Of a stretch of DNA of 64,000 nucleotides, positions 23,391 to 37,458 are shown piece after piece. Made by a program: the position numbers and the translations under genes. The notes beneath the pieces are model-generated. The model was not told the origin of the DNA. It searched no databases and saw nothing but the letters and a program-made list of their open reading frames with translations. Every line of letters begins with the position of its first letter. Position 1 is the first letter of the stretch. The DNA is from an uncultured Desulfospira sp. (GTDB taxonomy: Bacteria; Desulfobacterota; Desulfobacteria; Desulfobacterales; Desulfobacteraceae): contig OY760175.1 in the NCBI GenBank assembly GCA_963663165.1, positions 2,592,001-2,656,000 of the forward strand. Direction: 5' to 3'.

Positions 23391-24935
23391 GTGGAAACTC
23401 AGGTTTTAATCATAGGCGCCGGCTGTACCGGCACCGGCATTGCCAGGGACCTGGCCTTACGGGGAATCAACTGTATTCTCATTGACCAAAAAGATATCAA
23501 TGCCGGGGCGTCCGGGGCCAACCACGGCCTGCTCCATTCCGGGGCCAGATACCTGTCCAAGGACGGGGAGACCGCGGCAGAGTGCCGGGACGAAAACCGG
23601 CTGTTAAAGCGCCTGGCCCCCCAGTGCATTGAAGACACCGGCGGCCTGTTTGTGGCCACGGCCCAGGATGATGATCAGTATATTGCCGATTTTGAGCAGC
23701 TGGCCGGACAATACCATCTGCCCTGCACCCGTGTCAGCCCTGAGGAGGCCCTGGAAAAAGAACCCTGTCTTGCACCGGACATCAAGGCCGCCTTTGAAGT
23801 CGAAGATGCGGTGGTGGATCCTTTTAAACTCAGCCTGGACAATGCCGCCCATGCCCAGTCCCTGGGTACCCGGATACTGACAAACACCCAAATTGAGGGG
23901 TTTGACCTTCACAAGGGCCGGATCCAGGCGGCCCGGGTGGTCAATACCCGGACCGGGGAACCCCTTGCCATTCAGGCCCTGGAATTTGTCAATGCCGCCG
24001 GCGCCTGGGCCGACTGCGTTTCTGCCATGGCCGGTGCCCACATTCCCATGAGCTATTCAAAAGGCGCTTTGCTCATTACCCAGAGCCGCATCAGCCAGCG
24101 GGTGATCAACCGGCTGCGCCCCCCGTCAGACGGCGATATCCTGGTGCCCGGCGGCACCGTCTCCATTATCGGCACCACCTCAGTCACCATCCCATCATTA
24201 GACGACATCCGGCCCACCCGAGAGGAGGTGGACACCATTATCAGGGAAGGTTCCATCATGGTGCCCAAACTTGCCACCACCGGCTACATCCGGGCTTATG
24301 CCGGGGTACGTCCCCTGGTGGGCGCATCCGGGAAAGGCCTTGGCCGGAACATTTCCAGAAATTACACTTTAAAAACCCATGAAGCTGACGGGCTTGAGAA
24401 CCTGACCACCATCACCGGCGGCAAACTGACCACCTTTCGGCTGATGGCGGAAAAAGCCTCGGACATTGTGGCCCGCCGCCTGAAAAACCCCAATCCATGC
24501 CTGACCGCCATACAGCCCCTGCCCTGCAGCGCCAAGGGGGAGTGGACCGAACCCGGGTATTCCGGCCGGGTCTGGATGAAAAAGCCGGAACCCCGGGACA
24601 CGCTGATCTGCGAATGCGAGATGGTGTCTGAAGAAGCCGTGGACCAGATGGTGGAAAACCTAAAAAATGAAGGGACCGAGCCCACCTTAGAGGAAATCGG
24701 ACGGCGCAGCCGGATCGGCAAAGGCCCCTGCCAGGGCAGTTTCTGCTCCTTTCGACTGGCCGCCTACCTTTACCGGAAAGGGCATTTGTCCGGAACCCAG
24801 GGAATCGGCCAGGTCAGGGCCTTTGTAAACGAACGCTGGAAAGGCGTCATGCCCCTGGTCAGGGACAAGGAGCTTGCAAGAATCGAACTTCAGGAAGCCT
24901 TTTTATGCGGCCTGTTCGGAATGGAGGAACCATGA
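23391..24935 (+). CDS. glpA: Anaerobic glycerol-3-phosphate dehydrogenase subunit A
   Basis: IIGAGCTG, NHGLLHSGARY, AYAGVRPL, GGKLTTFRLMAE, C-terminal ICECE..GKGPCQGSFC. Confidence 0.92.
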   Translation: METQVLIIGAGCTGTGIARDLALRGINCILIDQKDINAGASGANHGLLHSGARYLSKDGETAAECRDENRLLKRLAPQCIEDTGGLFVATAQDDDQYIADFEQLAGQYHLPCTRVSPEEALEKEPCLAPDIKAAFEVEDAVVDPFKLSLDNAAHAQSLGTRILTNTQIEGFDLHKGRIQAARVVNTRTGEPLAIQALEFVNAAGAWADCVSAMAGAHIPMSYSKGALLITQSRISQRVINRLRPPSDGDILVPGGTVSIIGTTSVTIPSLDDIRPTREEVDTIIREGSIMVPKLATTGYIRAYAGVRPLVGASGKGLGRNISRNYTLKTHEADGLENLTTITGGKLTTFRLMAEKASDIVARRLKNPNPCLTAIQPLPCSAKGEWTEPGYSGRVWMKKPEPRDTLICECEMVSEEAVDQMVENLKNEGTEPTLEEIGRRSRIGKGPCQGSFCSFRLAAYLYRKGHLSGTQGIGQVRAFVNERWKGVMPLVRDKELARIELQEAFLCGLFGMEEP

Positions 24936-26218
24936 CATCCCCGACACCGGAACCAGACCTTACCCACTGCACCCTGGCCGTCATCGGATCGGGAACCGCC
25001 GGTATGGCCGCCGCCATCTTTGCCGCCCAAAAAGGCCTTTCAACGGTCCTGGTGGGGCAACCGGCACAACTTTCTTTCTCCTCGGGCTGCCTGGATCTGT
25101 TTGCCTGCATCCCGGGAAAGCCCGCCCAGTGGTTTGACGATCCTTTTAAAGGGATTGCCGCGCTGATTAAACAGAACCCGGGCCATCCCTATGCCAAAGT
25201 TTCCAGAAAAGAGATTGAAACCGGTTTTAAACAATTTATCCAATTTATGGAAATGGCCGGGATCAGCTTTTCATGCACCCCGGATCAAAATCAGAAGATT
25301 ATTACCCCGGCCGGAACCTTAAAATCCACCCTTTGCGTCCCTGCATCCATGGCCGCCGGAGCCCGGGCACTGGCCCAAAAAGAGCGGATACTCATCGCTG
25401 ATATTCCAGGGCTTAAAGGATTTGGCGCCCTGCAGATGGCCGATACTTTAAAACTGACTCATCCGGCGGTCACCAGTGTTTCCATTGAATTTCCAGGCAG
25501 ACAGAACCAGGGCGACCTCATGTGCGAACGTTTAGGGTGGGACCTGGACACCCCGCAGGTGGTGGACCAGTTTATCGAAAGCCTTGTCCCCCATGTCTCA
25601 TCCTGCGACACTGTGGGCCTGCCCGCTATCCTGGGGGTTCACCGGTTTGAGGCGTTAAGGGAAAAAATTGAACAGGGTCTTGGCCGGGCCGTATTTGAAA
25701 TCCCCACCCTGTCCCCTTCCGTTACCGGAATGCGCACCTGGGCCGCCTTTCAGGATCAAATACGCAACACCCAATTCCGCCAATTCCAGGACCTGGTGAA
25801 AACCGTCACCATAGACAACAGCCAAGGATTTTCCTTTAAGGTTAAAAACGGGGACAAACTGACGGTCATCCGTTCCAAATACCTGATTCTGGCCACAGGC
25901 CGGTTTTTAGGCCGGGGGCTGACAGCGGACGCCTCAGGCCGGATCAAAGAGAGCCTTTTCAACCTGCCGGTATCACAGCCCCGGGACCGCTCCGGCTGGT
26001 TTGAAGCTGATTTTTTCAACCCGGGCGGTCATCCGGTAAACCGGGCCGGCATTGAAACCGACGAAAACTTCAGGCCCCTGGATCAGGACGGAAACTGTTT
26101 CCACCCCAACCTTTATGCTGCAGGTGCCATCCTGGCCCACCAGGACTGGAAACGGGAAAAATCCGGCTCCGGCATCTCCATTGCTTCAGCCTTTAAGGCG
26201 GTCTCCCGGATGGATTGA
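24932..26218 (+). CDS. glpB: Anaerobic glycerol-3-phosphate dehydrogenase subunit B
   Basis: VIGSGTAG, FSSGCLD, HPY, LPAILG, EIPTLSPSVTG, LATGRFLGRGL, SGSGISI; ATGA overlap with glpA. Confidence 0.9.
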   Translation: MTSPTPEPDLTHCTLAVIGSGTAGMAAAIFAAQKGLSTVLVGQPAQLSFSSGCLDLFACIPGKPAQWFDDPFKGIAALIKQNPGHPYAKVSRKEIETGFKQFIQFMEMAGISFSCTPDQNQKIITPAGTLKSTLCVPASMAAGARALAQKERILIADIPGLKGFGALQMADTLKLTHPAVTSVSIEFPGRQNQGDLMCERLGWDLDTPQVVDQFIESLVPHVSSCDTVGLPAILGVHRFEALREKIEQGLGRAVFEIPTLSPSVTGMRTWAAFQDQIRNTQFRQFQDLVKTVTIDNSQGFSFKVKNGDKLTVIRSKYLILATGRFLGRGLTADASGRIKESLFNLPVSQPRDRSGWFEADFFNPGGHPVNRAGIETDENFRPLDQDGNCFHPNLYAAGAILAHQDWKREKSGSGISIASAFKAVSRMD

Positions 26219-26603
26219 TTTTTAGATCTGCCTTCCCGGCGCATCCGGCCGCAATACACCTGCTATTGAATGCTGATTTGAAATTGACCTGAGCGAAAAA
26301 TGATCCCATGAGGCCCCAGTCAATTTTATTGGTCTATAAAATTGATTTTGGTTTTTTCGGGTCAGGCACAACATATTGGGGTTGAATGGTTTTCGAAAAA
26401 CCCCGGACTTATAGACTTATGTTGCGAGTGGTCATAACTCATTGATTTTTATGATAAATTCAAACACCCGCTGTGCAAATCAATATCGACTTTTAAATTC
26501 AATGAGTTACAGTGGATTATAAAATTTTTCATAATCACTGGCAACATAATTTTTTGTTTTACTACATACCGCTTTAAAGATAGCAAAAGGCTACCTCAAT
26601 GGA

Positions 26604-27623
26604 TCATAAACTGTCAAGCCAGGCAAGGATTTCAGCATTATTTTTCCAGTCGATCAGCTCATCAATCTTCTTGTCTTGATTCATTTTCGATTGCATATAT
26701 TCAATGAGCTTATCCTGGATTTCCCGTTTTTTTGACAAGTCCAGCTGCAAATAAGCCATTGTTGATTCAACGCTTTGATGGCCCAGGCGATTTTTGATAT
26801 CCGATACGGGGGCCCCTGAAGTCACCATATTAACCGCACAAGAATGTCTGAAGCAATGGGCCGGACTCAGACCTTTCAACCGTTTTTCCGGCAATGCTTT
26901 TGTCAGATATCTTCGGCAAATTTTGTTGATACCATGCCGGGTCATTCCCCGCCTCCGCTGATTAATGAACAGCCGGTGTGCAAATAATGGGATGGGGGCT
27001 ACTCTATGATTGGTGATATAGTCTGAGATCAGTGATGCGGTTTTGGACCACAGGTTGATCAACCTGTATCGGTTCCCCTTGCCCAGGACCGCAATGGTTT
27101 CGTTTTCAGGATCAAAATAATCAAATTCCAGTGTGGCAATCTCGCTGGCTCTGGCACCGGAGTCGTAAAGCAGATGGAGAATGGTAAAATCTCTCATCCC
27201 TTCCTTCTTTTTTAAATCGACGACACTGAAAATTTTCATTATTTCTTCTGGGTGTAAAAATCCCATCACCTTCTTTTGAGCCCTTTTCTGAGGGATGGTC
27301 AAAAGAGCTTCTGCGACTCGTTTTTTGTCCGGATGCATGAATCGGATCATCTTGGCCAGCGACTTGATCACGGCCAAGCGGTTGTTCCGGGTCTGGACGG
27401 TATTTTTTCGGTCTGTTTCCAAATGATTCAGGAAGCCCAGAACAGCGTCAGGTGTTAAATGGTCAATTTTCAAGGATTTGATTTTGATCGAATGATAATC
27501 CGCCAAAAAATGCAGAAACAAAGAAAAAGCCTGCTGGTAAGTTTTAATGCTTTGTTCGCTGGTCCCTTTTATATGGGGCAGGTATTCATAAAAATACTGA
27601 TGCAGGCAGGTGGATAATCTCAT
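26604..27623 (-). CDS. ritC: Tyrosine recombinase, RitC type
   Basis: GARASEI, GKGNRYR, HCFRHSCA, LGHQSVESTMAYL; 4-bp overlap with the upstream recombinase. Confidence 0.88.
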   Translation of the reverse strand: MRLSTCLHQYFYEYLPHIKGTSEQSIKTYQQAFSLFLHFLADYHSIKIKSLKIDHLTPDAVLGFLNHLETDRKNTVQTRNNRLAVIKSLAKMIRFMHPDKKRVAEALLTIPQKRAQKKVMGFLHPEEIMKIFSVVDLKKKEGMRDFTILHLLYDSGARASEIATLEFDYFDPENETIAVLGKGNRYRLINLWSKTASLISDYITNHRVAPIPLFAHRLFINQRRRGMTRHGINKICRRYLTKALPEKRLKGLSPAHCFRHSCAVNMVTSGAPVSDIKNRLGHQSVESTMAYLQLDLSKKREIQDKLIEYMQSKMNQDKKIDELIDWKNNAEILAWLDSL

Positions 27624-28594
27624 ACATCCTCACTTCTCAACATCGAAAAATCAAGCATTTGGCGGCGATGCTCTGCATCCAGAACTCTCAGATATTTGGT
27701 CGTATACTTGTATTCGCTGTGTCCCATGTAAGCGGCCAGCACCGGCAACGCATTTTGGGCAGACTTGCCCTGTTGTTTAATTCGTTTCAGTGTATTTACA
27801 GCAAAGGAATGACGAAGTGAGTGCCGTGTCGGGTTGCTGAAATTTGTAGCACCAATAATTTTTTTGTGCTGATCAAGGTTAATGGCCGAAATCGCTTTTT
27901 TAAATTTTCGATCCATGAAATGGCGGGGTAACTTTCCGCCATCTCCTTTGATCAATAATAAAGGATGCACATCGGCAATAAGTAAAAGCCGTCGCACGTT
28001 CAAAAAATTGTCGATTTCACAAGAAACGGCCTTGGGTATTGGGATCAGTCGGTCTTTTTTAAATTTTGTTTTCTCAATATAGATTGTCCTTTCTTCAGAC
28101 CTGTAGTTCTTTTGCAGCAAATTGAACGTCTCCGATATTCTCAAGCCGCACCGGGCCATCAGCAGAAAAGAGATATAACCGCTAAAATCGGTGAGGTAAT
28201 ATTTTTTTGTTTTTCGCATCTGTTTTATGACAGTTTTCAATAAAAGATCCGTTTCTTTCGGAGAAAAAATAAAAGGGATAATCTGATTTTCCGGCAGCTC
28301 AGCAATCTCCTGTATGGGATTTGTCAAAATCAGGTCTCTGCGGATCAGATATTTGAAAAACATTTGAAACGTTCGAAAAAATGTATTGATGGAACGGTTT
28401 TCACAATTGAGGTCTGAACGGAGTCGGATGAAAAACAACGGATCAAATGATGTCCAGGTCACATCCCTTTGGGCAACATACCGATCCAGCAACCGAAGGC
28501 TGCACAGCAGCATTTTATCTGAATATCCCAATTGAAGACGGTATTCGATAAAATCCTCTATATATTCGCTAAGAAAGCTTTTAAAGCGTTTCAC
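27620..28594 (-). CDS. ritB: Tyrosine recombinase, RitB type
   Basis: CGLRISE, KTKFKKDRLIP, HSLRHSFAV, LPVLAAYMGH..TTKYL. Confidence 0.88.
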   Translation of the reverse strand: MKRFKSFLSEYIEDFIEYRLQLGYSDKMLLCSLRLLDRYVAQRDVTWTSFDPLFFIRLRSDLNCENRSINTFFRTFQMFFKYLIRRDLILTNPIQEIAELPENQIIPFIFSPKETDLLLKTVIKQMRKTKKYYLTDFSGYISFLLMARCGLRISETFNLLQKNYRSEERTIYIEKTKFKKDRLIPIPKAVSCEIDNFLNVRRLLLIADVHPLLLIKGDGGKLPRHFMDRKFKKAISAINLDQHKKIIGATNFSNPTRHSLRHSFAVNTLKRIKQQGKSAQNALPVLAAYMGHSEYKYTTKYLRVLDAEHRRQMLDFSMLRSEDV

Positions 28595-29540
28595 CGAGGA
28601 TAACCTCCCGCATCAGGTTGATATGGATGCTCAGATATTTTTGCGTTGCTCCGATGCTTTTATGGCCCATCATTTCTTTTATCTCATAAATGGAAGCACC
28701 GGACTCCAGCAAATTCTGGGCGTAAGAATGCCTCAGCCAATATGTGTTTGACTCAAGATTGCTATCAGCCATAAATTCTCTTATATGACGGGGGATGTCG
28801 CTCCTGCCAACCGGTTTATAAGGCGGCACTAACTGTAAAAATAAGGTTCGAGATTGGGTTTCTGGTCTCCCGCCGATAATATAAGCGGTGATGGCCTTGA
28901 TCACATTGTCCGGCACAGGAAGATGAGCAGGGCTGTAATTTTTTCTCGAACGAATAAAAATCTCTTTTTGCCTGAAAGAGATGTCATCCAGGGTAAGTGA
29001 GCTGATTTCTCCGGGCCTCAATCCCAAAAAATATGCCAGGTGCATAGCCGCATAAATACGGAGATCTTTTGCTGTTGACAAATTCATGAGCTTAAACATT
29101 TTTTGCACTTCATGGGGGCGCAAGAATTTCGGTGGTTTTGACCGAGCAAACTCAGGAGGGCTCACCACCAGCACAGAGATGTCTTTTTTGATATACCCGC
29201 CTCGGTAGAGGTGCTTGAGAAACTGCCGAAGATGTGACCGGTTAGATCTGGCTGCCCCGGCAGAATAATTGGTGTTGTAACGGGCTAAAAATTGATCAAC
29301 CTGATGAATGGATATTTCATTTAAAAGAATGCCTGACGTTTGAAGAAAAAAATGAAAACTCATCAGTATTTGCCTCATTGCGCCGATATTGTTTTCGTTA
29401 CGAAGCTGGTGTTTGTAATAATTCAGATACCCATGAAAAATTTCCGGCAACGGAAGGCCGAGTGGCGGCATTATTTCTGCCGGCACTCGACATCGACGAT
29501 AAGACTGTATATTGAGTTCTGTTCCCAAATCAGACGTCAT
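28581..29540 (-). CDS. ritA: Tyrosine recombinase, RitA type
   Basis: PPKFLRP, LGLRPGEI, YWLRHSYA, MGHKSIGATQKYL. Confidence 0.85.
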   Translation of the reverse strand: MTSDLGTELNIQSYRRCRVPAEIMPPLGLPLPEIFHGYLNYYKHQLRNENNIGAMRQILMSFHFFLQTSGILLNEISIHQVDQFLARYNTNYSAGAARSNRSHLRQFLKHLYRGGYIKKDISVLVVSPPEFARSKPPKFLRPHEVQKMFKLMNLSTAKDLRIYAAMHLAYFLGLRPGEISSLTLDDISFRQKEIFIRSRKNYSPAHLPVPDNVIKAITAYIIGGRPETQSRTLFLQLVPPYKPVGRSDIPRHIREFMADSNLESNTYWLRHSYAQNLLESGASIYEIKEMMGHKSIGATQKYLSIHINLMREVILGETL

Positions 29541-29838
29541 GATCAGGTGCTCTTGTATTCAAAATAATCTGAAGATATTTGACACTGTCAACAAAACCAA
29601 TGTGCCGACAGGCCATTACCAGATCTATGGTATTAAAATTCTTTTCGCATCGAAAACACCTGCTCAGGTTCGTCTTAGGATTAACTGCAGTCTGAAATTC
29701 ATTGCACAAGGGACACAGAAAACGGAAAACCCCTTCACTTATTTTGGCTGGAATACCCAGTTCCGTTTCGATCAACACATGAATGGGTATTGAATTTCGT
29801 AATCTATAAAGTTCCTTTGAAGAAAATCGTTTGCCCAT
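29530..29838 (-). CDS. CHC2-type (primase-like) zinc-finger protein
   Basis: FRFLCPLCNE..TNLSRCFRCEKNFNTIDLVM..FVDSVKYL resembles the DnaG zinc-binding domain; overlaps both neighbours. Confidence 0.8.
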   Translation of the reverse strand: MGKRFSSKELYRLRNSIPIHVLIETELGIPAKISEGVFRFLCPLCNEFQTAVNPKTNLSRCFRCEKNFNTIDLVMACRHIGFVDSVKYLQIILNTRAPDHDV

Positions 29839-30343
29839 GCTGACACCTCTTCTTTTTGGTTAGTTCCTTCATAATATCTGGTGTCAATTTTACCGTCTCC
29901 TGGTCCGTGGCATCAATAATCTCTTGTAACGCATTTTTGTTAAGGAGGGTGTCAAACCCAATAAAGACAAGGGTCTTGGCCGATATTAAATCTTGTAACG
30001 GTATTTGAATTAAATCCATCGAAGATCCTTTACCAGCAATGGTTTTGGCAGTTTTTATCTCTTGTAACGTATTTTCAGTTAAGGATGGCTTTCCCGGAGG
30101 CTTTGTTCGCTTCCAGTAACCAGGATTGCTTTGGCGCCATTCCTGAACACGGACCACATTCTCAGGCCCTGAAAAATAATCCTGATTCTTTGGCTTATTC
30201 AGCCATTTTTGCTGGCTGTGTTTTTTACTGGCAATTTTGCATTCGGGTTCGTTACAAAATTTTTGCCGTTTCAAATGACGGGGATCTGGCTTGAATAAAT
30301 TTTGGCAGTTTTTACACCTGCGCTGTCGGATTTGTTTTTTCAT
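29804..30343 (-). CDS. Hypothetical basic Cys4 zinc-finger protein of the RIT-like element
   Basis: RRCKNC..QKFCNEPEC..NQDYF..RVQEWR..NPGYW; three 23-aa LQ(E/D) repeats; SD aaggagg. Confidence 0.75.
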   Translation of the reverse strand: MKKQIRQRRCKNCQNLFKPDPRHLKRQKFCNEPECKIASKKHSQQKWLNKPKNQDYFSGPENVVRVQEWRQSNPGYWKRTKPPGKPSLTENTLQEIKTAKTIAGKGSSMDLIQIPLQDLISAKTLVFIGFDTLLNKNALQEIIDATDQETVKLTPDIMKELTKKKRCQHGQTIFFKGTL

Positions 30344-30507
30344 AGACCTGATACCTCCTTAGATCTATGATCGGATGGATGGTGGCGGGGTAGTATTTTT
30401 TCAAAATATGGCGGGGTATAGCGGGGTCCAGCTGGGTCGGGCGGGGTAGAACACGCAACAAAAAAAACTCGCTACATAAATAGACAGATTGCACACTTAA
30501 AAAATCA

Positions 30508-31149: not shown

Positions 31150-32265
31150 GGCGTTGCTCCAGGAATTAAAAAGAACGTAATGGTCACAGAAACGATTGCC
31201 CATATATCATTCTGAGTCGGACGATTTAATTTATAGGTATCATGACAAAAATTTGATCTCAAGAACTTATAACTAAACTTGGCATTCAACAAATTAGACA
31301 CCGGCAAATGAATATAGAGAAGATTCATGAGCTTTCATGGTATGGAACCGGACTATTTGAGGCCCAACGCCCCTCTCCAATAACAGATCAAGTACACATG
31401 GCCACGCTGCAGGCCTTTTCCCGAGCCTTTCCGAAAAAAGTCCCGCTGTTCTTCCAGGAATTTTGTATACTGTCGGTGTCCTGATCCTTCATCAGGATAG
31501 ACCATAACATTTTTAAAGGAGGGCAGCATCATGAAAATTTCACAGGCAATTAAAAATTTTCTGGCTTACCAAAAGCTCAACTCAAAAAAAACACCATCCA
31601 AAACTATCGATACTTTCTGGCAGTTTTCCAAAAGGAGTTCGGCAAGCGTGATGTCTCTGCGGTAACATCGGATGAAATCATGGCATTTCTGGTCAAAATC
31701 ACTGAAGGCCTGAAACCCTCAACCAAGAAACTCAAATATTCCCTTCTCAAAAGCCTCTTCAATTTTGTCAAAAATACTGCCGTGCCAAATCTTCTCAATC
31801 CATGTGACTCTGCTCTCCTATCAAAAACATTTCGAGTTTCCAAGTTGCCGCCATGGACAATCTTGGAACGAGATGCCGTTGATGAATTCATATTCAAAAC
31901 GGAGAGCCCCAGAAACCGGCTGATGCTTGAATTGATGGCAAGGGGTGGAATGAGGATCGGTGAAGTTCTGAAATTGAAGCCTCAGGATGTCCAGGATCGA
32001 AAACTTCATTTGCCCAATCCCAAGAGTGGCCGTACCTCCGAAGTCGTTTTTATTCCCCAAAAGGTGGCAGACCGGCTGCGTGATTATATTGCCGCTGAAA
32101 ATTTTCTGGATGATGAGCGTATTTTCCCTCTGGGGTAGGGTGCAATCCCATTTAGTGGCATGAACTGACATGTATCCAATTTTTCCGTTTTTCATGCTGC
32201 ATTGAATACTCTGCCCTCCCAAAAAAAGCTGGACTCCTGGCTCATGAAAGGTTATATAGATTTGC

Positions 32266-33138
32266 ATGAGCAGGACTTTAACCATTCAAGGACGTGAATT
32301 TTCAGAAGTTGATATACAAACGATACGCCATTTGATTAACGACAATCCCGCCTGGCACCGCACTCGTTTATCCAAAGAATTGTGTGCTCGCTGGGATTGG
32401 CGCACGGAAAAAGGTCTGCTCAAGGACATGGCCTGTCGAAGCATGCTGAGAAAACTTGAGCAAAAAGGGATGGTCACACTTCCCGTTGCCCGTCATAGCG
32501 GTAACCGTCAGCGGCGTATTCCCGATGTCCCCCATGATTGTAAGCCGATAGAAACCACTTTGCGTAAGATCCGCCCGATACAATTGATACCGGTATCGGG
32601 CCGTGGAGATATTGATGATTTATTCCATTGCCTTATGGATCGATATCATTACCTTGGGTGTAAAGGGTATGTCGGAGAACATATGAAGTATATGGCTTTT
32701 GATCGCAATTCTCGTCCGGTTGCCTGCCTGCTTTTTGGCTCAGCAGCATGGAAAACGGCCCCTCGTGACCGATTCATCGGTTGGGATAGGTCGGCTCGTC
32801 GCAGGAACCTGCATATGACGACCAACAATACCCGATTTTTGATTTTGCCATGGATTCGAATTCCCCATCTTGCCAGTCATATTCTGGGTTCATGTCTTAG
32901 GCGGCTGAGCCGGGACTGGACAGCTAAATATGGTCACGATATCTGTCTGGTAGAAACTTTCGTGGATCGATCACGCTTTGCCGGAACTTGCTACCAGGCG
33001 GCAAATTGGCAAAAAATTGGTCAAAGCAAAGGGCGAAGCCGTCAAGACAGGCACCACAGACTTCAGGTGCCGATAAAAGACATCTATGTATACCCGTTGA
33101 CTTCCAATTATAAAAAGCAGCTATGCACACAAACTTGA
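32266..33138 (+). CDS. DUF4338 (DruA-like) protein
   Basis: RTRLSKELCARWDWR..LKDMACR, YHYLG, PRDRFIGW, NNTRFLILPW..HLASHILG, ETFVDRSRFAGTCYQAANW..G.SKGRSRQD. Confidence 0.85.
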   Translation: MSRTLTIQGREFSEVDIQTIRHLINDNPAWHRTRLSKELCARWDWRTEKGLLKDMACRSMLRKLEQKGMVTLPVARHSGNRQRRIPDVPHDCKPIETTLRKIRPIQLIPVSGRGDIDDLFHCLMDRYHYLGCKGYVGEHMKYMAFDRNSRPVACLLFGSAAWKTAPRDRFIGWDRSARRRNLHMTTNNTRFLILPWIRIPHLASHILGSCLRRLSRDWTAKYGHDICLVETFVDRSRFAGTCYQAANWQKIGQSKGRSRQDRHHRLQVPIKDIYVYPLTSNYKKQLCTQT

Positions 33139-33195
33139 GGGTTTCAGTCATCGAAATGACAGGTAATTTTTCAACCTGCAATTCGAGGACTGATC

Positions 33196-34596
33196 ATGAA
33201 ACTTGCTTCCACTATAAGGGATATTCGAACCCTTCTAACAAAAGCCGTAGCTGATTTCCAAAACCATCAAAATGCTAATATCCTGTGTGAGCAGGTACGG
33301 AACGGCCTCTTCATTATTGTGGAAGCATTTCTGGTTCCCGTCATTGAAAAGGCACTGTCTGACCCGGATCTTTTATCTGAACTGAAAATTGGTGCCGGTA
33401 AAAAGGGACTGCGTTTCAACGGATACCGCCCCAGCAGCATTCGATTATTGACAGGAACTACCCTGAGCATCCGATCCCCTTACTTTTCAAAAGTTGTTTC
33501 CAAACAACGGCCAGGCCCTAAAACAAAAAAACGACAAAAGGGGACAGGCCGCCATTTTGGGCTTGATTACCTTGGTTTTATCGGCAGGTGTTCAACGCTG
33601 TTCGCTTCGTCGGTGGTCCATGCAGCATTGCTCTGCCCCTCTTTTGAAATTGCCCGAAGATCCCTGGAAAACCATGCAATCAACTTAAATGTCAAAACCA
33701 TACGCCGCATAACAATGAATCTTGCACAGGAAGCTATGCCCCTGCGTGGCCGGGTATCTTTTGGAGATACTGATCGCGTTGGTGGCAAAACGGTTCTGGT
33801 TTGTATCGACGGCGGTCGCCTTCGAGAACGGAGGCCAAAACGGGGACGTAAATCAAAAGGCCAAAAGCGGCAGGGATATCATACTGAATGGAAAGAACCC
33901 ATTCAGTTTGTCATACATATTGTCGATCCGGACGGCACAATATCCAAAAAACACTTGCCGGTTTATGATGCCACAATGGGCGGTATTGATGCCGCTTTTG
34001 ATATTCTTGAGATCTACTTGCGTGAATTAGATATTCCCAAAGCCAAGCGTGTTGTTTTCTGCTGTGACGGTGCACGTAGCTATTGGAAGCGAACAGGCCC
34101 GCTGGCCAAACGGCTTGAAATCGAATCCTATTATGAGGTAATCGACTACACCCATGCAAAACAGAATTTACATGAAATCGTGGACAAATTGCCAAAGAGA
34201 ATCCCTATAAAAGAAAGAAACCGGATAGCAGAATCTTGGAAGAACCTCCTTTGGGATGGCAGATTCAAAGACCTTAGAAAAGAAATTGTAAAACACATTA
34301 CGTACCCTAAAAGGCGCATAGAAGCACTATCCAAATTTAAAAGTTACTTCGTGAAAAATCGAAACAGAATGCAGTATCGCCAGTTCCGCAGCCTGAAAAT
34401 ACCTACTGGCAGCGGCTGTGTTGAAAGTGCAATACGTCGGGTTATAAATCTCAGAATGAAATCACCGGGTATATTCTGGAAACCGGAAACATCCGAATCA
34501 ATGTTGTTCTTAAGGAGTCAGCTCCTTTCCGGGAGGTGGAACATCTTGACTGACAATATCTTCATACAAATTCGGTCACTTTGCTTAGGCCACTAA
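33196..34596 (+). CDS. DDE transposase, ISKra4/ISLre2-like
   Basis: CIDGG..WKEP, CCDGARSYW, IDYTHA, MQY..IPTGSGCVESAIRRVINLRMK..GIFW; stop codon lies within the right TIR. Confidence 0.85.
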   Translation: MKLASTIRDIRTLLTKAVADFQNHQNANILCEQVRNGLFIIVEAFLVPVIEKALSDPDLLSELKIGAGKKGLRFNGYRPSSIRLLTGTTLSIRSPYFSKVVSKQRPGPKTKKRQKGTGRHFGLDYLGFIGRCSTLFASSVVHAALLCPSFEIARRSLENHAINLNVKTIRRITMNLAQEAMPLRGRVSFGDTDRVGGKTVLVCIDGGRLRERRPKRGRKSKGQKRQGYHTEWKEPIQFVIHIVDPDGTISKKHLPVYDATMGGIDAAFDILEIYLRELDIPKAKRVVFCCDGARSYWKRTGPLAKRLEIESYYEVIDYTHAKQNLHEIVDKLPKRIPIKERNRIAESWKNLLWDGRFKDLRKEIVKHITYPKRRIEALSKFKSYFVKNRNRMQYRQFRSLKIPTGSGCVESAIRRVINLRMKSPGIFWKPETSESMLFLRSQLLSGRWNILTDNIFIQIRSLCLGH

Positions 34597-34856
34597 ATGG
34601 GAATGCACCCTCTGGGGTATACCCGGGCCAGGGAGATCGTTAAAAGCGCCGGCAAAAAAATCGGAATTGATGTAAAGCCACATGATCTCAGACGGCATGC
34701 AGCCACTTATGCCAGCCGATCAGGCGTTCCTATTGAAATCGTTTCAAAAATCATCCTTCGTCACTCAAACCTGTCCACCACCCAGAGGTATCTTGGAAAA
34801 ATCAGCGACACCGAGGCCATGTATTGGATTGAGAATATTTACCGGTAAAAATCGAA

Positions 34857-35097: not shown

Positions 35098-37458
35098 CTA
35101 CGACTTTATTTTCTTTGCCATCCTTTTAAGATATTTCTGCTTTCTTTTACCGAACAGCTCTATCTGTTTTTCCATCTCCTTTAATCGATCTTCTTTTTCT
35201 TGGTTTTCGGCATACATATCTTGATAATTATCAATTAAGGCCTTAACTGATGGAATGAACTTATATCCTTTATTTTCAAGTTCTTTACTCGTTTCGATAA
35301 AAGATTCCATCAGCTCATTCTTGCTCCTTAAATCATCCTCGGCATTTTCTTCGTATTTACCGTTTGACTCAAATAATTTGCTTGTGAAGACATCGGCTAA
35401 TTCATATTTTAACCTTGTGAGATTATAGCCTCTTAGATCTACCCCAATTCCAACTAATTTTTCAATAGATTCCCAATTCTGAGTAACTACAAAACTTAAG
35501 AAAGGATTCTCAAATAGATTTTTAATTTCATCGTAAGATAAATCAAAAGGAGCAACTCTCTCAATTAGCGAGATAATATTTAAAGGCCTGATATAAAATG
35601 GTTCAAAAATCCCCAGCTCTTTAGCACATTTTAGTACTCTTGATGAAGTAGTTAAAACGTAATATTTATACTTAAGTGTGTCAATTGCCTTTCTATTTTC
35701 TTTACGATTTTCGTGCAAATAATTCATATACATTCTGGAATCAATTTTTGCTATCTCACGATTCTCTTCTTCATCTCTGTATGATCCCTTGAATGTGTTT
35801 TTTGTTAATTCAAAAACTCTTTCTTGTAGCTGTTCAAAGTAATAATATTCGTTTTCTTCAAGTTCAAGATCAGCTAATTCTATAAAGATAATTTTTGAAC
35901 ATATTTCATTTTTTATTAAATCAATAAAATATTCAATTGGTTGTTTCGGGTGATAATAATTTTGAATATAATTATCGAAATTCGGACTAATTTTATTATT
36001 TAAAATACCGTTAAAATAGCCTTTTGCAAATATGTTCCCAACTTGCTCTTCAAGAATAATAGGGTCTATCACATCGGATTTCGTTCTGAAATAATTATAA
36101 TTTCGGTAAGAATATTTGGCGTGTTGTGAGACTTCATGTAAAACTTGGATTGGAATAATGATTTTCGCATTGTATTTGATTAACTCTGATATGATCCGTC
36201 TATAAACGCTACATTCAGTGTTCTCCGAAACTATGAGATTTAAAACGAAATCAGTATCAATTATGAATTCTTTTTCCGCAAACTGTTTACCTTGGAAATT
36301 ATTCTGCTTAGGGTCTAATTTCAGAACTTGAGCTCCAACATACGTCTTGCACCATGAAATCAAAGTAGCCTCTTGGTCTATCGTCGGACTCTTTAAAATT
36401 TCACCTACACAATATATCAGCACTTCAGATTCCTCTTCAGGAAGCCCTTGTTTTAACTTGGATATCAAACTCATAGAAGTGTCATAGTCATTGTGTATAT
36501 TTTCAATATCAAAACTTTTTTCTAAAGCATACAGTTTAAAATAATCCGTTATTCCTTCTTCTGAGTTCTTAACAATTTGTCTTTTAGACGAGTTAGAAAG
36601 ATCTCTTTCGAGAATTAATTGAATTTTAAAAATAATATCATCAAACAATGCTGATTTTTCAGACAATGTTTTTGCACTCGCTTCTTCAATGGCCATGCTC
36701 TTTTTGTCTGAAATATAAAAACCTCCATTTTTTTCTATAAGATTTCCTAACTTGGCCTGTCTTGTTAAAGAGCATTCAATTTTTCTTCGGTTAATCGCTG
36801 CTTGAATTTGATTTTTAATTTCATCTTGTAGAATCGGAGCATCACAACCAGGATTCGAATAAACAAAATATAAAATTAGCGTATCAAAGATCTTTTTATT
36901 CGAATCAAAAAAGGCGTCACTCTGAGTTAGTGCAATAGAAATTTTCGCCAATGATTTTTCATAGTTTTGATTTTTGTCATCAGTTGATTCTTGCTTGCTG
37001 AACAAATCTGAGTTTAATTGTTTCCGTATATCTGGAAAGTATCTATTAAGAAAAGATGGATTAGCCCCTAATCGAGATTTAAAAACCTGTCTTTCATAAA
37101 TTTCCAATTTGGGTCTTATGCCATGTTTTTTTCTGAAATTTGTTTTTACCTCTTCCTTGTTATTCACTCTTTCAAGGGTAACAATTATCAATTCATCGCA
37201 TTTTTTTCCCGTTTCCTTAATCCTGTTATATGTTGACGAGATTTTAGATTTTACATTTTGTTGCAATGAATACTGGAAAATTATATTATATTCAGATTGC
37301 TCGTAGTATTTTACTAATCCAGCATCTACACCACCATCTTTGATTCCTCCTGCTGGTATTAAATTATTATACCCTTCTTGGATCATTATTTCGTTTGCCA
37401 AGTCCTCAAATTTATTAAAATCGGTGTAATTGGTTAGAATAATTTCGATAATATCCAT
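35098..37458 (-). CDS. AT-rich 786-aa hypothetical protein: N-terminal restriction-endonuclease-like domain, central helical/wHTH-like region, PIN-like domain, C-terminal coiled coil; candidate defence protein
   Basis: FEDLANEI..GGIKDGGVDAG..IIFQYSLQ; FIIDTDFVL..IPIQVLHEV..KIDSRMY..YVLTTS; much more AT-rich than flanking genes. Confidence 0.65.
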   Translation of the reverse strand: MDIIEIILTNYTDFNKFEDLANEIMIQEGYNNLIPAGGIKDGGVDAGLVKYYEQSEYNIIFQYSLQQNVKSKISSTYNRIKETGKKCDELIIVTLERVNNKEEVKTNFRKKHGIRPKLEIYERQVFKSRLGANPSFLNRYFPDIRKQLNSDLFSKQESTDDKNQNYEKSLAKISIALTQSDAFFDSNKKIFDTLILYFVYSNPGCDAPILQDEIKNQIQAAINRRKIECSLTRQAKLGNLIEKNGGFYISDKKSMAIEEASAKTLSEKSALFDDIIFKIQLILERDLSNSSKRQIVKNSEEGITDYFKLYALEKSFDIENIHNDYDTSMSLISKLKQGLPEEESEVLIYCVGEILKSPTIDQEATLISWCKTYVGAQVLKLDPKQNNFQGKQFAEKEFIIDTDFVLNLIVSENTECSVYRRIISELIKYNAKIIIPIQVLHEVSQHAKYSYRNYNYFRTKSDVIDPIILEEQVGNIFAKGYFNGILNNKISPNFDNYIQNYYHPKQPIEYFIDLIKNEICSKIIFIELADLELEENEYYYFEQLQERVFELTKNTFKGSYRDEEENREIAKIDSRMYMNYLHENRKENRKAIDTLKYKYYVLTTSSRVLKCAKELGIFEPFYIRPLNIISLIERVAPFDLSYDEIKNLFENPFLSFVVTQNWESIEKLVGIGVDLRGYNLTRLKYELADVFTSKLFESNGKYEENAEDDLRSKNELMESFIETSKELENKGYKFIPSVKALIDNYQDMYAENQEKEDRLKEMEKQIELFGKRKQKYLKRMAKKIKS

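Follow-up and report, generated by a model that had tools for sequence, protein, structure and literature searches.

A 64,000-nucleotide stretch of the genome of an uncultured Desulfospira sp. (contig OY760175.1, positions 2,592,001 to 2,656,000; hereafter the window) carries, at 26417-30479, a 4,063-bp element that is a recently active member of the RIT family. Two genes for small zinc proteins precede its trio of tyrosine recombinase genes, ritA, ritB and ritC, and comparison with relatives places it in a clade of RITs whose members, seen mainly in Desulfobacterales-type hosts, have a portable accessory cassette of two slots ahead of ritABC. The first slot would encode a regulator, the zinc-finger protein Z1, and the second a replication-type helper for replicative copy-out; this model as a whole is given a probability of about 0.45. 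The names Z1, Z1k, Z1b, Z2 and Z3 are labels of this analysis.

The element, its copies and its boundaries

The five overlapping, co-oriented genes reported in a preliminary description, which a model had made from the sequence alone, were all found on the minus strand, in the order Zn-finger (Z1), CHC2, ritA, ritB and ritC, with overlaps of 35, 11, 14 and 4 bp along the operon. The same description had proposed a search for identical copies at other loci. The genome (6.74 Mb) has four near-identical copies, each exactly 4,063 bp long and differing at one base, all with the same boundaries, with Zn-finger, CHC2 and ritABC inside and with the hexamer GTCTAT flanking both ends. Since four copies share exact ends, a one-base divergence and the hexamer on both sides, and GTCTAT has only 1,920 occurrences in the genome with both strands counted, the boundaries and the hexamer are above chance. 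One copy is inserted in a DDE/ExeA transposon present in 11 copies, and the remaining ten transposon copies are empty sites with a single GTCTAT. The four copies and ten empty sites together argue that the 4,063-bp unit is mobile together with both zinc genes. Because the empty sites hold the hexamer once, it is a selected, fixed crossover core; the 6-bp direct repeat of the preliminary description (ATAGAC at 26411 and 30480) is thus present, but is such a core and not a target duplication. The core lies on the minus strand at 26411-26416 on the ritC side (GTCTAT on the element strand) and at 30480-30485 on the Z1 side.

The 13-bp inverted ends are terminal recombinase-type sites at 26417-26429 (ritC side) and 30467-30479 (Z1 side), complementary at 12 of 13 positions; both form boundaries common to the four copies, and CTC.CAACATAA of the ritC-side site is invariant in 10/10 aligned ends. 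The two extra end-like sites are also present, namely an inverted copy of the terminal site that lies internally, 133 bp away from the end (26537-26549), and in which ATTATGTT is invariant in 10/10 aligned ends, and a second, tandem terminal-type site on the Z1 side (30451-30463), such a tandem pair also occurring in relatives and in a canonical RIT. The palindromic left end has its 11-bp arms at 26435 and 26499, but a perfect palindrome is not conserved in relatives. Each arm contains a match to the IHF consensus, WATCAANNNNTTR: the first (26435-26447, minus strand) has no mismatch, and the second (26497-26509, plus strand) has one; its TAA and TG positions do not vary among the aligned ends. 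Both are presumably bound by IHF, and the host genome encodes three HU/IHF-family genes.

The three large proteins score above the PF00589 cut-off, each with the R..HxxR..Y catalytic motifs. RitC (339 aa; 26604-27623, minus strand) is 31-34% identical to members of plasmid trios and has a C-terminal extension that runs 44 residues beyond the Pfam domain, the sequence alignment with the plasmid members reaching residue 339; this stretch may contain the additional C-terminal helix described for RitC of RIT elements. RitB (324 aa; 27620-28594, minus strand) is a recombinase with which the core hexamer co-varies, as judged from the RitB tree described below. RitA (319 aa, with a possible start at codon 24; 28581-29540, minus strand) is a short form that lacks the N-terminal part of canonical RitA: it aligns only to residues 154-415 of a 420-aa RitA, and the two sequential core-binding domains typical of RITs are not found in it. 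RitA is shorter than 350 aa in 53/53 Z1>CHC2 elements. That the cassette substitutes for the missing domain was considered and rejected, as the winged-helix profile had no match there (probability 5.7). Many other module-bearing RITs retain a long RitA (at least 375 aa), and the module therefore does not simply stand in for a lost RitA domain.

Linkage of the zinc genes to RIT trios

Both zinc genes are integral to the element, as the preliminary description had supposed, and are under purifying selection: every copy encloses them within its ends, many genomes have them in association with RIT trios, and they show median ratios of nonsynonymous to synonymous substitution (dN/dS) of 0.23 for Z1 and 0.07 for CHC2, the values for ritABC being 0.07-0.15 (10-11 diverged elements). 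Linkage was found widely, with neither copies ending between ritA and the CHC2 gene nor a general separation of the zinc genes from RITs elsewhere. All locus counts given here come from related sequences and are not independent observations. A GTDB scan with CHC2, in which 80 of 108 loci were kept, gave 23 RIT, 49 DDE+AAA, 6 IS21-like and 2 ExeA-type loci; the 23 RIT loci consist of 17 Z1>CHC2>RIT (12 records) and 6 other CHC2>RIT arrangements. To avoid selecting on the module itself, searches were also based on the recombinases. RitC matches occurred in 27/301 genomes of the order, from which 20 regions were fetched and 16 were assessable; a 5' zinc-finger gene is present in 16/16, followed by a winged-helix gene in 12, CHC2 in one and nothing in three. 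From 239 RitA matches in metagenomes, 80 loci were kept, five of which were cut by contig ends, and the two-gene module is found in all 75 assessable loci (37 Z1>CHC2, 35 Z3>winged helix and 3 Z1k>winged helix).

This last count, together with purifying selection within RITs and the repeated replacement of cassettes by non-homologous ones, makes it very improbable that the zinc genes are passengers, acquired in a single event from the left end of an IS21-like element, with no benefit to RIT movement, even though the same genes occur in DDE elements and canonical RITs manage without them.

Exchange of the cassette among transposons

The zinc module is a swappable cassette that is not specific to RITs and is shared with DDE transposons. 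The same genome has two other RIT families, one with Z3>winged helix and a SEC-C/TPR gene (RIT_B, four copies) and the other with Z2>winged helix (RIT_C, eight copies). At two further loci (L016 and L019), a module with 87-88% DNA identity to that of the window's element precedes ritBC that are 91-95% identical (protein 95-99%) to those of a Z3>winged-helix RIT. Cassettes have been replaced repeatedly by non-homologous ones rather than lost. Outside RITs, Z1>winged helix lies ahead of istA-istB on the Caballeronia plasmid pSBC1_4, and a Z2-like frame lies ahead of istA-istB in Methylotuvimicrobium. In IS21-like and ExeA-type elements, CHC2 is the last gene, behind the ATPase; in the window's genome, a Zn>DDE>ExeA element has a RepB' primase in this position, directly after its ATPase. 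CHC2 itself seems to have been exchanged only rarely between element classes, since its tree sorts by class and monophyly of the RIT sequences is not rejected (p-AU 0.83); repeated exchange of CHC2 finds no support in this tree.

Several related elements were recorded in passing. The transposon with RepB' (L006:2130-6120; Zn/HTH gene > rve transposase > ExeA-type ATPase > RepB' primase) has about 11 copies, one of which hosts a copy of the window's element. Multi-copy transposons of 4.2-4.3 kb (L003 and L004) have the order Zn > CHC2 > 184-aa unknown > 582-aa putative DDE > AAA_22 ATPase; the 582-aa protein has no transposase Pfam match, and the genome has at least 11 CHC2-bearing places. An IS21-like element with Z2 > winged helix > ParB-like > IstA > IstB (L005:1092-5034) is inserted in the CHC2 gene of another transposon. 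RIT_B (L001, G000:C1:2716663-2721376, and relatives) has its conserved, divergent SEC-C/TPR gene inside the end, as do most Z3>winged-helix elements. RIT_C (L002, G000:C1:2833228-2837345) lies, in 6/8 copies, just before a GGGACTT/GGGATAT heptamer-repeat family with about 100 genome matches. A second, inverted Z1b > winged-helix cassette adjoins the Zn-side end of one RIT (L120:617-1600), and the region upstream of the Caballeronia IS21 (L266:1-4797) has the SE/GInt-like order integrase > 546-aa hypothetical > large integrase > small gene.

Z1 and its 69-bp repeat array

Z1 (179 aa; 29804-30343, minus strand) occupies slot 1 and consists of a Cys4 zinc finger with basic helices (residues 1-80), the 3' half of its gene lying over a DNA repeat array. 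Its cysteines C10, C13, C30 and C35 are invariant in 53 sequences, and the per-residue confidence (pLDDT) of its predicted structure is high until about residue 70 and drops below 50 at 84-135. Z1 matched no family in Pfam, NCBIfam or PHROG, and fold searches reached a Z of at most 3.2 with no named family, an atlas search likewise returning none; a weak NinG-type PHROG match was obtained only in a Z1b relative. CGNR, Ogr/Delta and NinG are zinc-finger families that were considered as leads.

The array consists of three direct repeats, (G/C/A)CGTTACAAGA, with a 69-bp period on the minus strand (29922-29932, 29991-30001 and 30060-30070). Synonymous sites are frozen at the three repeats (pS 0.38 vs 0.69), TTA CAA being invariant in 11 sequences. 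The best autocorrelation lag is 69-70 bp in 42/45 Z1-family modules, with z above 3 in 39/45, and a significant lag of 69-70 was found in 0/17 Z2/Z3 modules. The motif varies with the Z1 subtype (GCGTTACAAGA; GATTGCAAAGATGGACGC; GACTAAT..TTAAGAG) and stays with the subtype whether slot 2 is CHC2, winged helix or empty, and across RIT, DDE and IS21 elements. The GC-rich Caballeronia IS21 (Z1>wHTH>istA>istB, with wHTH the winged-helix gene) contains an identical 11-mer in three copies spaced at 69 bp, and at two loci with an empty slot 2 (L131 and L136) the array lies directly ahead of ritA. Z1 can thus be inferred to bind the 69-bp array. A promoter-like TTGATG-18-TAAAAT (29887-29916, minus strand) begins 5 bp past the third repeat; it is weak (9/12 matches, in a region not above shuffles), and its hexamers are mostly kept in 40 relatives but inside coding sequence, and are absent from the Caballeronia copy. 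A guide or CRISPR-like array was set aside by inspection, no RNA-structure or Rfam search having been made, as each interval resembles the others in degenerate form and the intervals are common to elements with different cores.

The proteins of slot 2

In the window's element, slot 2 encodes a stand-alone primase-type zinc-binding domain of 102 aa (29530-29838, minus strand), which matches PF01807 (CHC2) at 31.8 bits against a cut-off of 24.9. Its ligands are Cys4 (CPLC...CFRC), not Cys-His-Cys-Cys. The family profile has the DnaG zinc domain 1D0Q as its sole PDB match (E 0.022), nearly full length and with the N-terminal helices included, and the protein matches only positions 7-96 of TIGR01391, so that the TOPRIM polymerase domain is absent. 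The family counts 445 representatives with E values no higher than 1e-10, and the top 150 among 684 representatives are all short, at 78-245 aa. No CHC2 was found in viral contigs with the query used. The zinc domain of DnaG is reported to govern template recognition and to function in trans (PMC2978363). A single database protein (P0271) has a Z2 zinc finger fused to CHC2, possibly through read-through or a sequencing artefact.

The winged-helix protein that takes this slot in other elements is absent from the window's element. RepA_N initiators came top in both fold searches with it (4PTA at Z 8.3, with a root-mean-square deviation of 3.5 over 87 aligned residues; 5KBJ at E 0.004), and DnaB 5WTN was found at Z 7.8.

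Target core and footprint of movement

The preliminary description had offered target selection as one possible role of the zinc proteins, which the distribution of cores contradicts. Cores are equal in 42/48 loci with both ends found, and GTCTAT, TGGTAT and CTCCAA were each seen with both main module types. Changes were counted on FastTree trees with 200 shuffles, the rows with the three cores and two modules amounting to 41 of 87 RitB rows. On the RitB tree there are 3 core changes (shuffled mean 19.3; 0/200 as low) and 11 module changes (shuffled mean 12.9; 30/200 as low), on the RitC tree 4 core and 10 module changes, and on the RitA tree, ritA being the gene that adjoins the module, 5 core and 3 module changes. 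The core hexamer therefore follows the RitB/RitC tree and not the module, and the module does not set the target core. A core mismatch, GTAGGG/CTCCAA, was dropped because it is the end of a neighbouring insertion sequence (IS).

A natural case of unequal cores is provided by the Z2>CHC2 RIT of one genome, G276 (L138, L151, L152, L235-L237 and L254-L265), which has variable cores, targets a GC-rich repeat family and is the best natural test case for the mechanism. The cores of its complete copies (Zn/ritC side) are CAGACC/CAGACC, CAGACC/GGGAAC, CAGAAA/GGGAAC, TTGAAC/GGGAAC and GGGAAC/GGGAAC; they are unequal in 3/5, and in 3/3 of these the hexamer on the ritC side equals the core that a different copy has on its Zn side. 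The CAGAAA site has an empty paralogue with CAGAAA alone, and the imported GGGAAC is present in 0/8 empty target-like sites, which argues that the target hexamer stays on the Zn side. The donor-derived hexamer would then be imported on the ritC side, as in SE and Tn554 elements, a footprint that, if read correctly, excludes a target duplication and a homology-requiring crossover for this RIT. For the window's own element the footprint would be an extrapolation, since all its cores are equal. No circle junction or empty-site joint was found in the contigs of four runs; as contigs drop rare forms and the runs may include the source of the window, this is uninformative either way.

Proposed mechanism and alternatives

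The sequences show that the element moves as a unit between Xer-like inverted sites and prefers, for its integration, a 6-bp core whose sequence co-varies with RitB/RitC. In the first proposed step, RitABC would join one strand of both ends, and host replication would copy out a circle. Z1 would bind the triple array at the end of its own gene and control the downstream genes, either by activating an internal promoter or by acting as a roadblock. The slot-2 protein, a primase zinc domain here and an initiator-like winged helix elsewhere, would assist the replication of the bridged or circular intermediate, at the stage of priming or of restart. Such a helper would explain the presence of the same cassette in DDE transposons thought to use copy-out, IS21 being named among presumed copy-out families (bioRxiv 2023.06.07.543989). 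The DnaG zinc domain, the RepA_N-like winged helix, the position of RepB' and the presumed copy-out of IS21 are the reasons for preferring a replication helper to the alternatives below. A further proposal, that the cassette (zinc finger, 69-bp array and replication-type protein), exchanged among unrelated transposons, licenses the host replication step as an element-encoded copy-out factor, with RITs moving by strand-biased copy-out that leaves a 6-bp footprint, is put forward only tentatively.

Several observations weigh against the replication-helper model. CHC2 has no catalytic domain, and in DnaG chimeras a heterologous zinc domain is reported to be a poor partner for the polymerase domain (PMC2978363). 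In the fold comparison of the winged helix, CRP- and MarR-type regulators score no more than 1 Z away from the initiators. Three RITs have no slot-2 gene, and in canonical RITs the cassette is absent from 5/5 distant examples (four plasmid and one 3,484-bp example from the same phylum), all with a long RitA, so that it is no universal requirement. In the CHC2 tree, sequences group by element class. The array is absent from Z2 and Z3 modules and is thus not general, the promoter match is weak, and the IHF consensus lies between the repeats in Z1b and Z1k arrays and not in this element's own array. As for the footprint, it comes from one genome with three informative copies and is also compatible with a Tn916-like heteroduplex cut-out; for a sixth copy in G276, with CAGAGC at its ritC end, the partner end was not located, and the genome contains no donor that matches one RIT_B copy (TGGCAT/TACTAT).

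The regulators among the fold matches raise the alternative of a purely regulatory cassette, in which the slot-2 protein, like Z1, binds DNA to regulate the transposition operon and takes no part in replication. This would fit the nearly equal scores of generic winged-helix regulators and initiators, the cassette's constant place at the operon head where RITs have it, the promoter-like sequence abutting the array, the RITs with no slot-2 gene and the single Z2-CHC2 fusion. It leaves aside that both slot-2 alternatives have relatives among replication proteins and that CHC2 stands last, behind the ATPase, in IS21-like and ExeA-type elements, where another element has its RepB' primase. It is regarded as less likely than the replication-helper model.

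It is also conceivable, if improbable, that the array is an iteron set with IHF sites, from which the excised circle replicates briefly alone as a mini-replicon. The three direct repeats with the IHF consensus between them in Z1b and Z1k arrays, the number of IHF sites (34 vs 18 expected in 44 Z1-family regions; 2 vs 3.4 in 16 others) and the RepA_N-like winged helix would suit such a replicon, but the motif tracks Z1 and neither the winged helix nor CHC2, and Z2 and Z3 modules have no array. Contig depth, a poor measure, was 869 over the element vs 227-276 in the flanks in run X3, about as for four chromosomal copies.

Roles as RIT-specific recombination partners, that is, target selectors or directionality factors, seem just as improbable. 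The zinc genes are conserved and translationally overlapped with ritA, and SEs, GInts and Tn554 are each reported to need a small extra protein (PMC10214605); on the other side, core changes follow the RitB/RitC trees and module changes do not, and the same proteins serve DDE transposases. A role that needs specific contact with Rit proteins, such as directionality, is less likely because the cassette is interchangeable and shared with DDE transposons. Recognition of single-stranded DNA or forks and maintenance of a circle, two further roles offered in the preliminary description, may still apply.

Surroundings of the element

To the left, a glpA-like gene and glpB (23391-26218) stop 200 bp short of the element, and no glpC is evident beside them. 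The ritC-end flank (26310-26410) is a member of a small family of dispersed repeats; at least three paralogues share 72-80% identity, and one of them begins with GTCTAT. To the right, a 2.47-kb element (32138-34610) consists of a DruA-like gene (PF14236) followed by an ISKra4-like transposase; it has about ten near-identical copies, and the copy here splits a tyrosine recombinase gene (31680-32138 and 34597-34848). The low-GC island on this side also encodes a 786-aa protein (35098-37458) that has weak Mrr_cat and PIN matches.

Significance and relation to known systems

As of 2023, RIT transposition is described in PMC10214605 as not reproduced in the laboratory, with target specificity, empty sites and movement untested. 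The present clade offers exact ends and fixed cores tied to RitB/RitC for the study of RIT movement, and its natural copies with unequal cores predict which hexamer is carried by the circle junction. The candidate regulator and operator might, by absence or repression, explain failed mobilisation assays. For many IS families it is a question how copy-out intermediates reach the replication machinery, and a small cassette common to several recombinase chemistries is a direct lead; if the cassette is only regulatory, a zinc-finger/operator system on several transposon classes would still be apparently new. Literature searches returned no description of zinc/CHC2/winged-helix cassettes in RITs or IS21, of the 69-bp array or of a RIT footprint, in keeping with the undescribed subclass suggested by the preliminary description; Ricker 2013, Van Houdt 2009, ISfinder, TnCentral and supplements lay outside the search and may list such elements.

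The trio, its catalytic motifs and the ends mark the element as a RIT, and its 4,063 bp with two extra genes as a variant rather than a canonical member. Like canonical RITs such as ritA1B1C1 of Cupriavidus metallidurans CH34, it has overlapping A, B and C recombinases with catalytic motifs that align with plasmid trios, it shares its terminal motif and tandem pair with the 3,484-bp canonical RIT of the same phylum (L147), and it likewise occurs in multiple identical copies. Canonical RITs are described as about 3.5 kb long with recombinases only (PMC3414803) and with two core-binding domains in RitA (PMC8138268), whereas the window's element (4.06 kb) has two extra genes inside its ends, an internal 69-bp array and a RitA without the N-terminal part of the two-domain form. 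A four-gene element with the trio and a TetR gene is reported from C. metallidurans (PMC2864759), and exonuclease-resistant RIT intermediates from Sphingobium (PMC5737581).

SE, GInt and Tn554 elements are likewise multi-recombinase, non-conjugative and target-specific, and the polarity of the G276 footprint is that of SEs, with the target hexamer near the first integrase and the donor hexamer at the far end. The model favoured for SEs is single-strand bridging followed by replicative copy-out (PMC10214605). In contrast to these elements, the window's element has three recombinases of similar size, its accessory genes are upstream and of zinc/winged-helix type instead of a small downstream Srap/GinD/TnpC gene, and the SE/GInt gene set (intA, tfp/ginC, large intB and srap/ginD) is not found in it; by inference, it may work like an SE or Tn554 but without their genes. 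IS21 and other DDE+ATPase transposons (Caballeronia pSBC1_4, Desulforapulum pHRM2a and Tn6049-like ExeA elements) share Z1/Z2, the winged helix, CHC2 and the 69-bp array, but use DDE chemistry and an AAA+ helper, neither of which is present in the window's element. The CHC2 protein aligns at near-full length with the DnaG zinc domain (PF01807; 1D0Q) and differs from DnaG in standing alone, in having Cys for the His ligand and in the absence of a polymerase domain. Compared by role and not by homology, the IS excision enhancer (IEE), a PrimPol-helicase, is also a priming-type protein that acts on copy-out intermediates; it is a large catalytic protein of the AEP (archaeo-eukaryotic primase) type, encoded outside the IS, and promotes IS loss.

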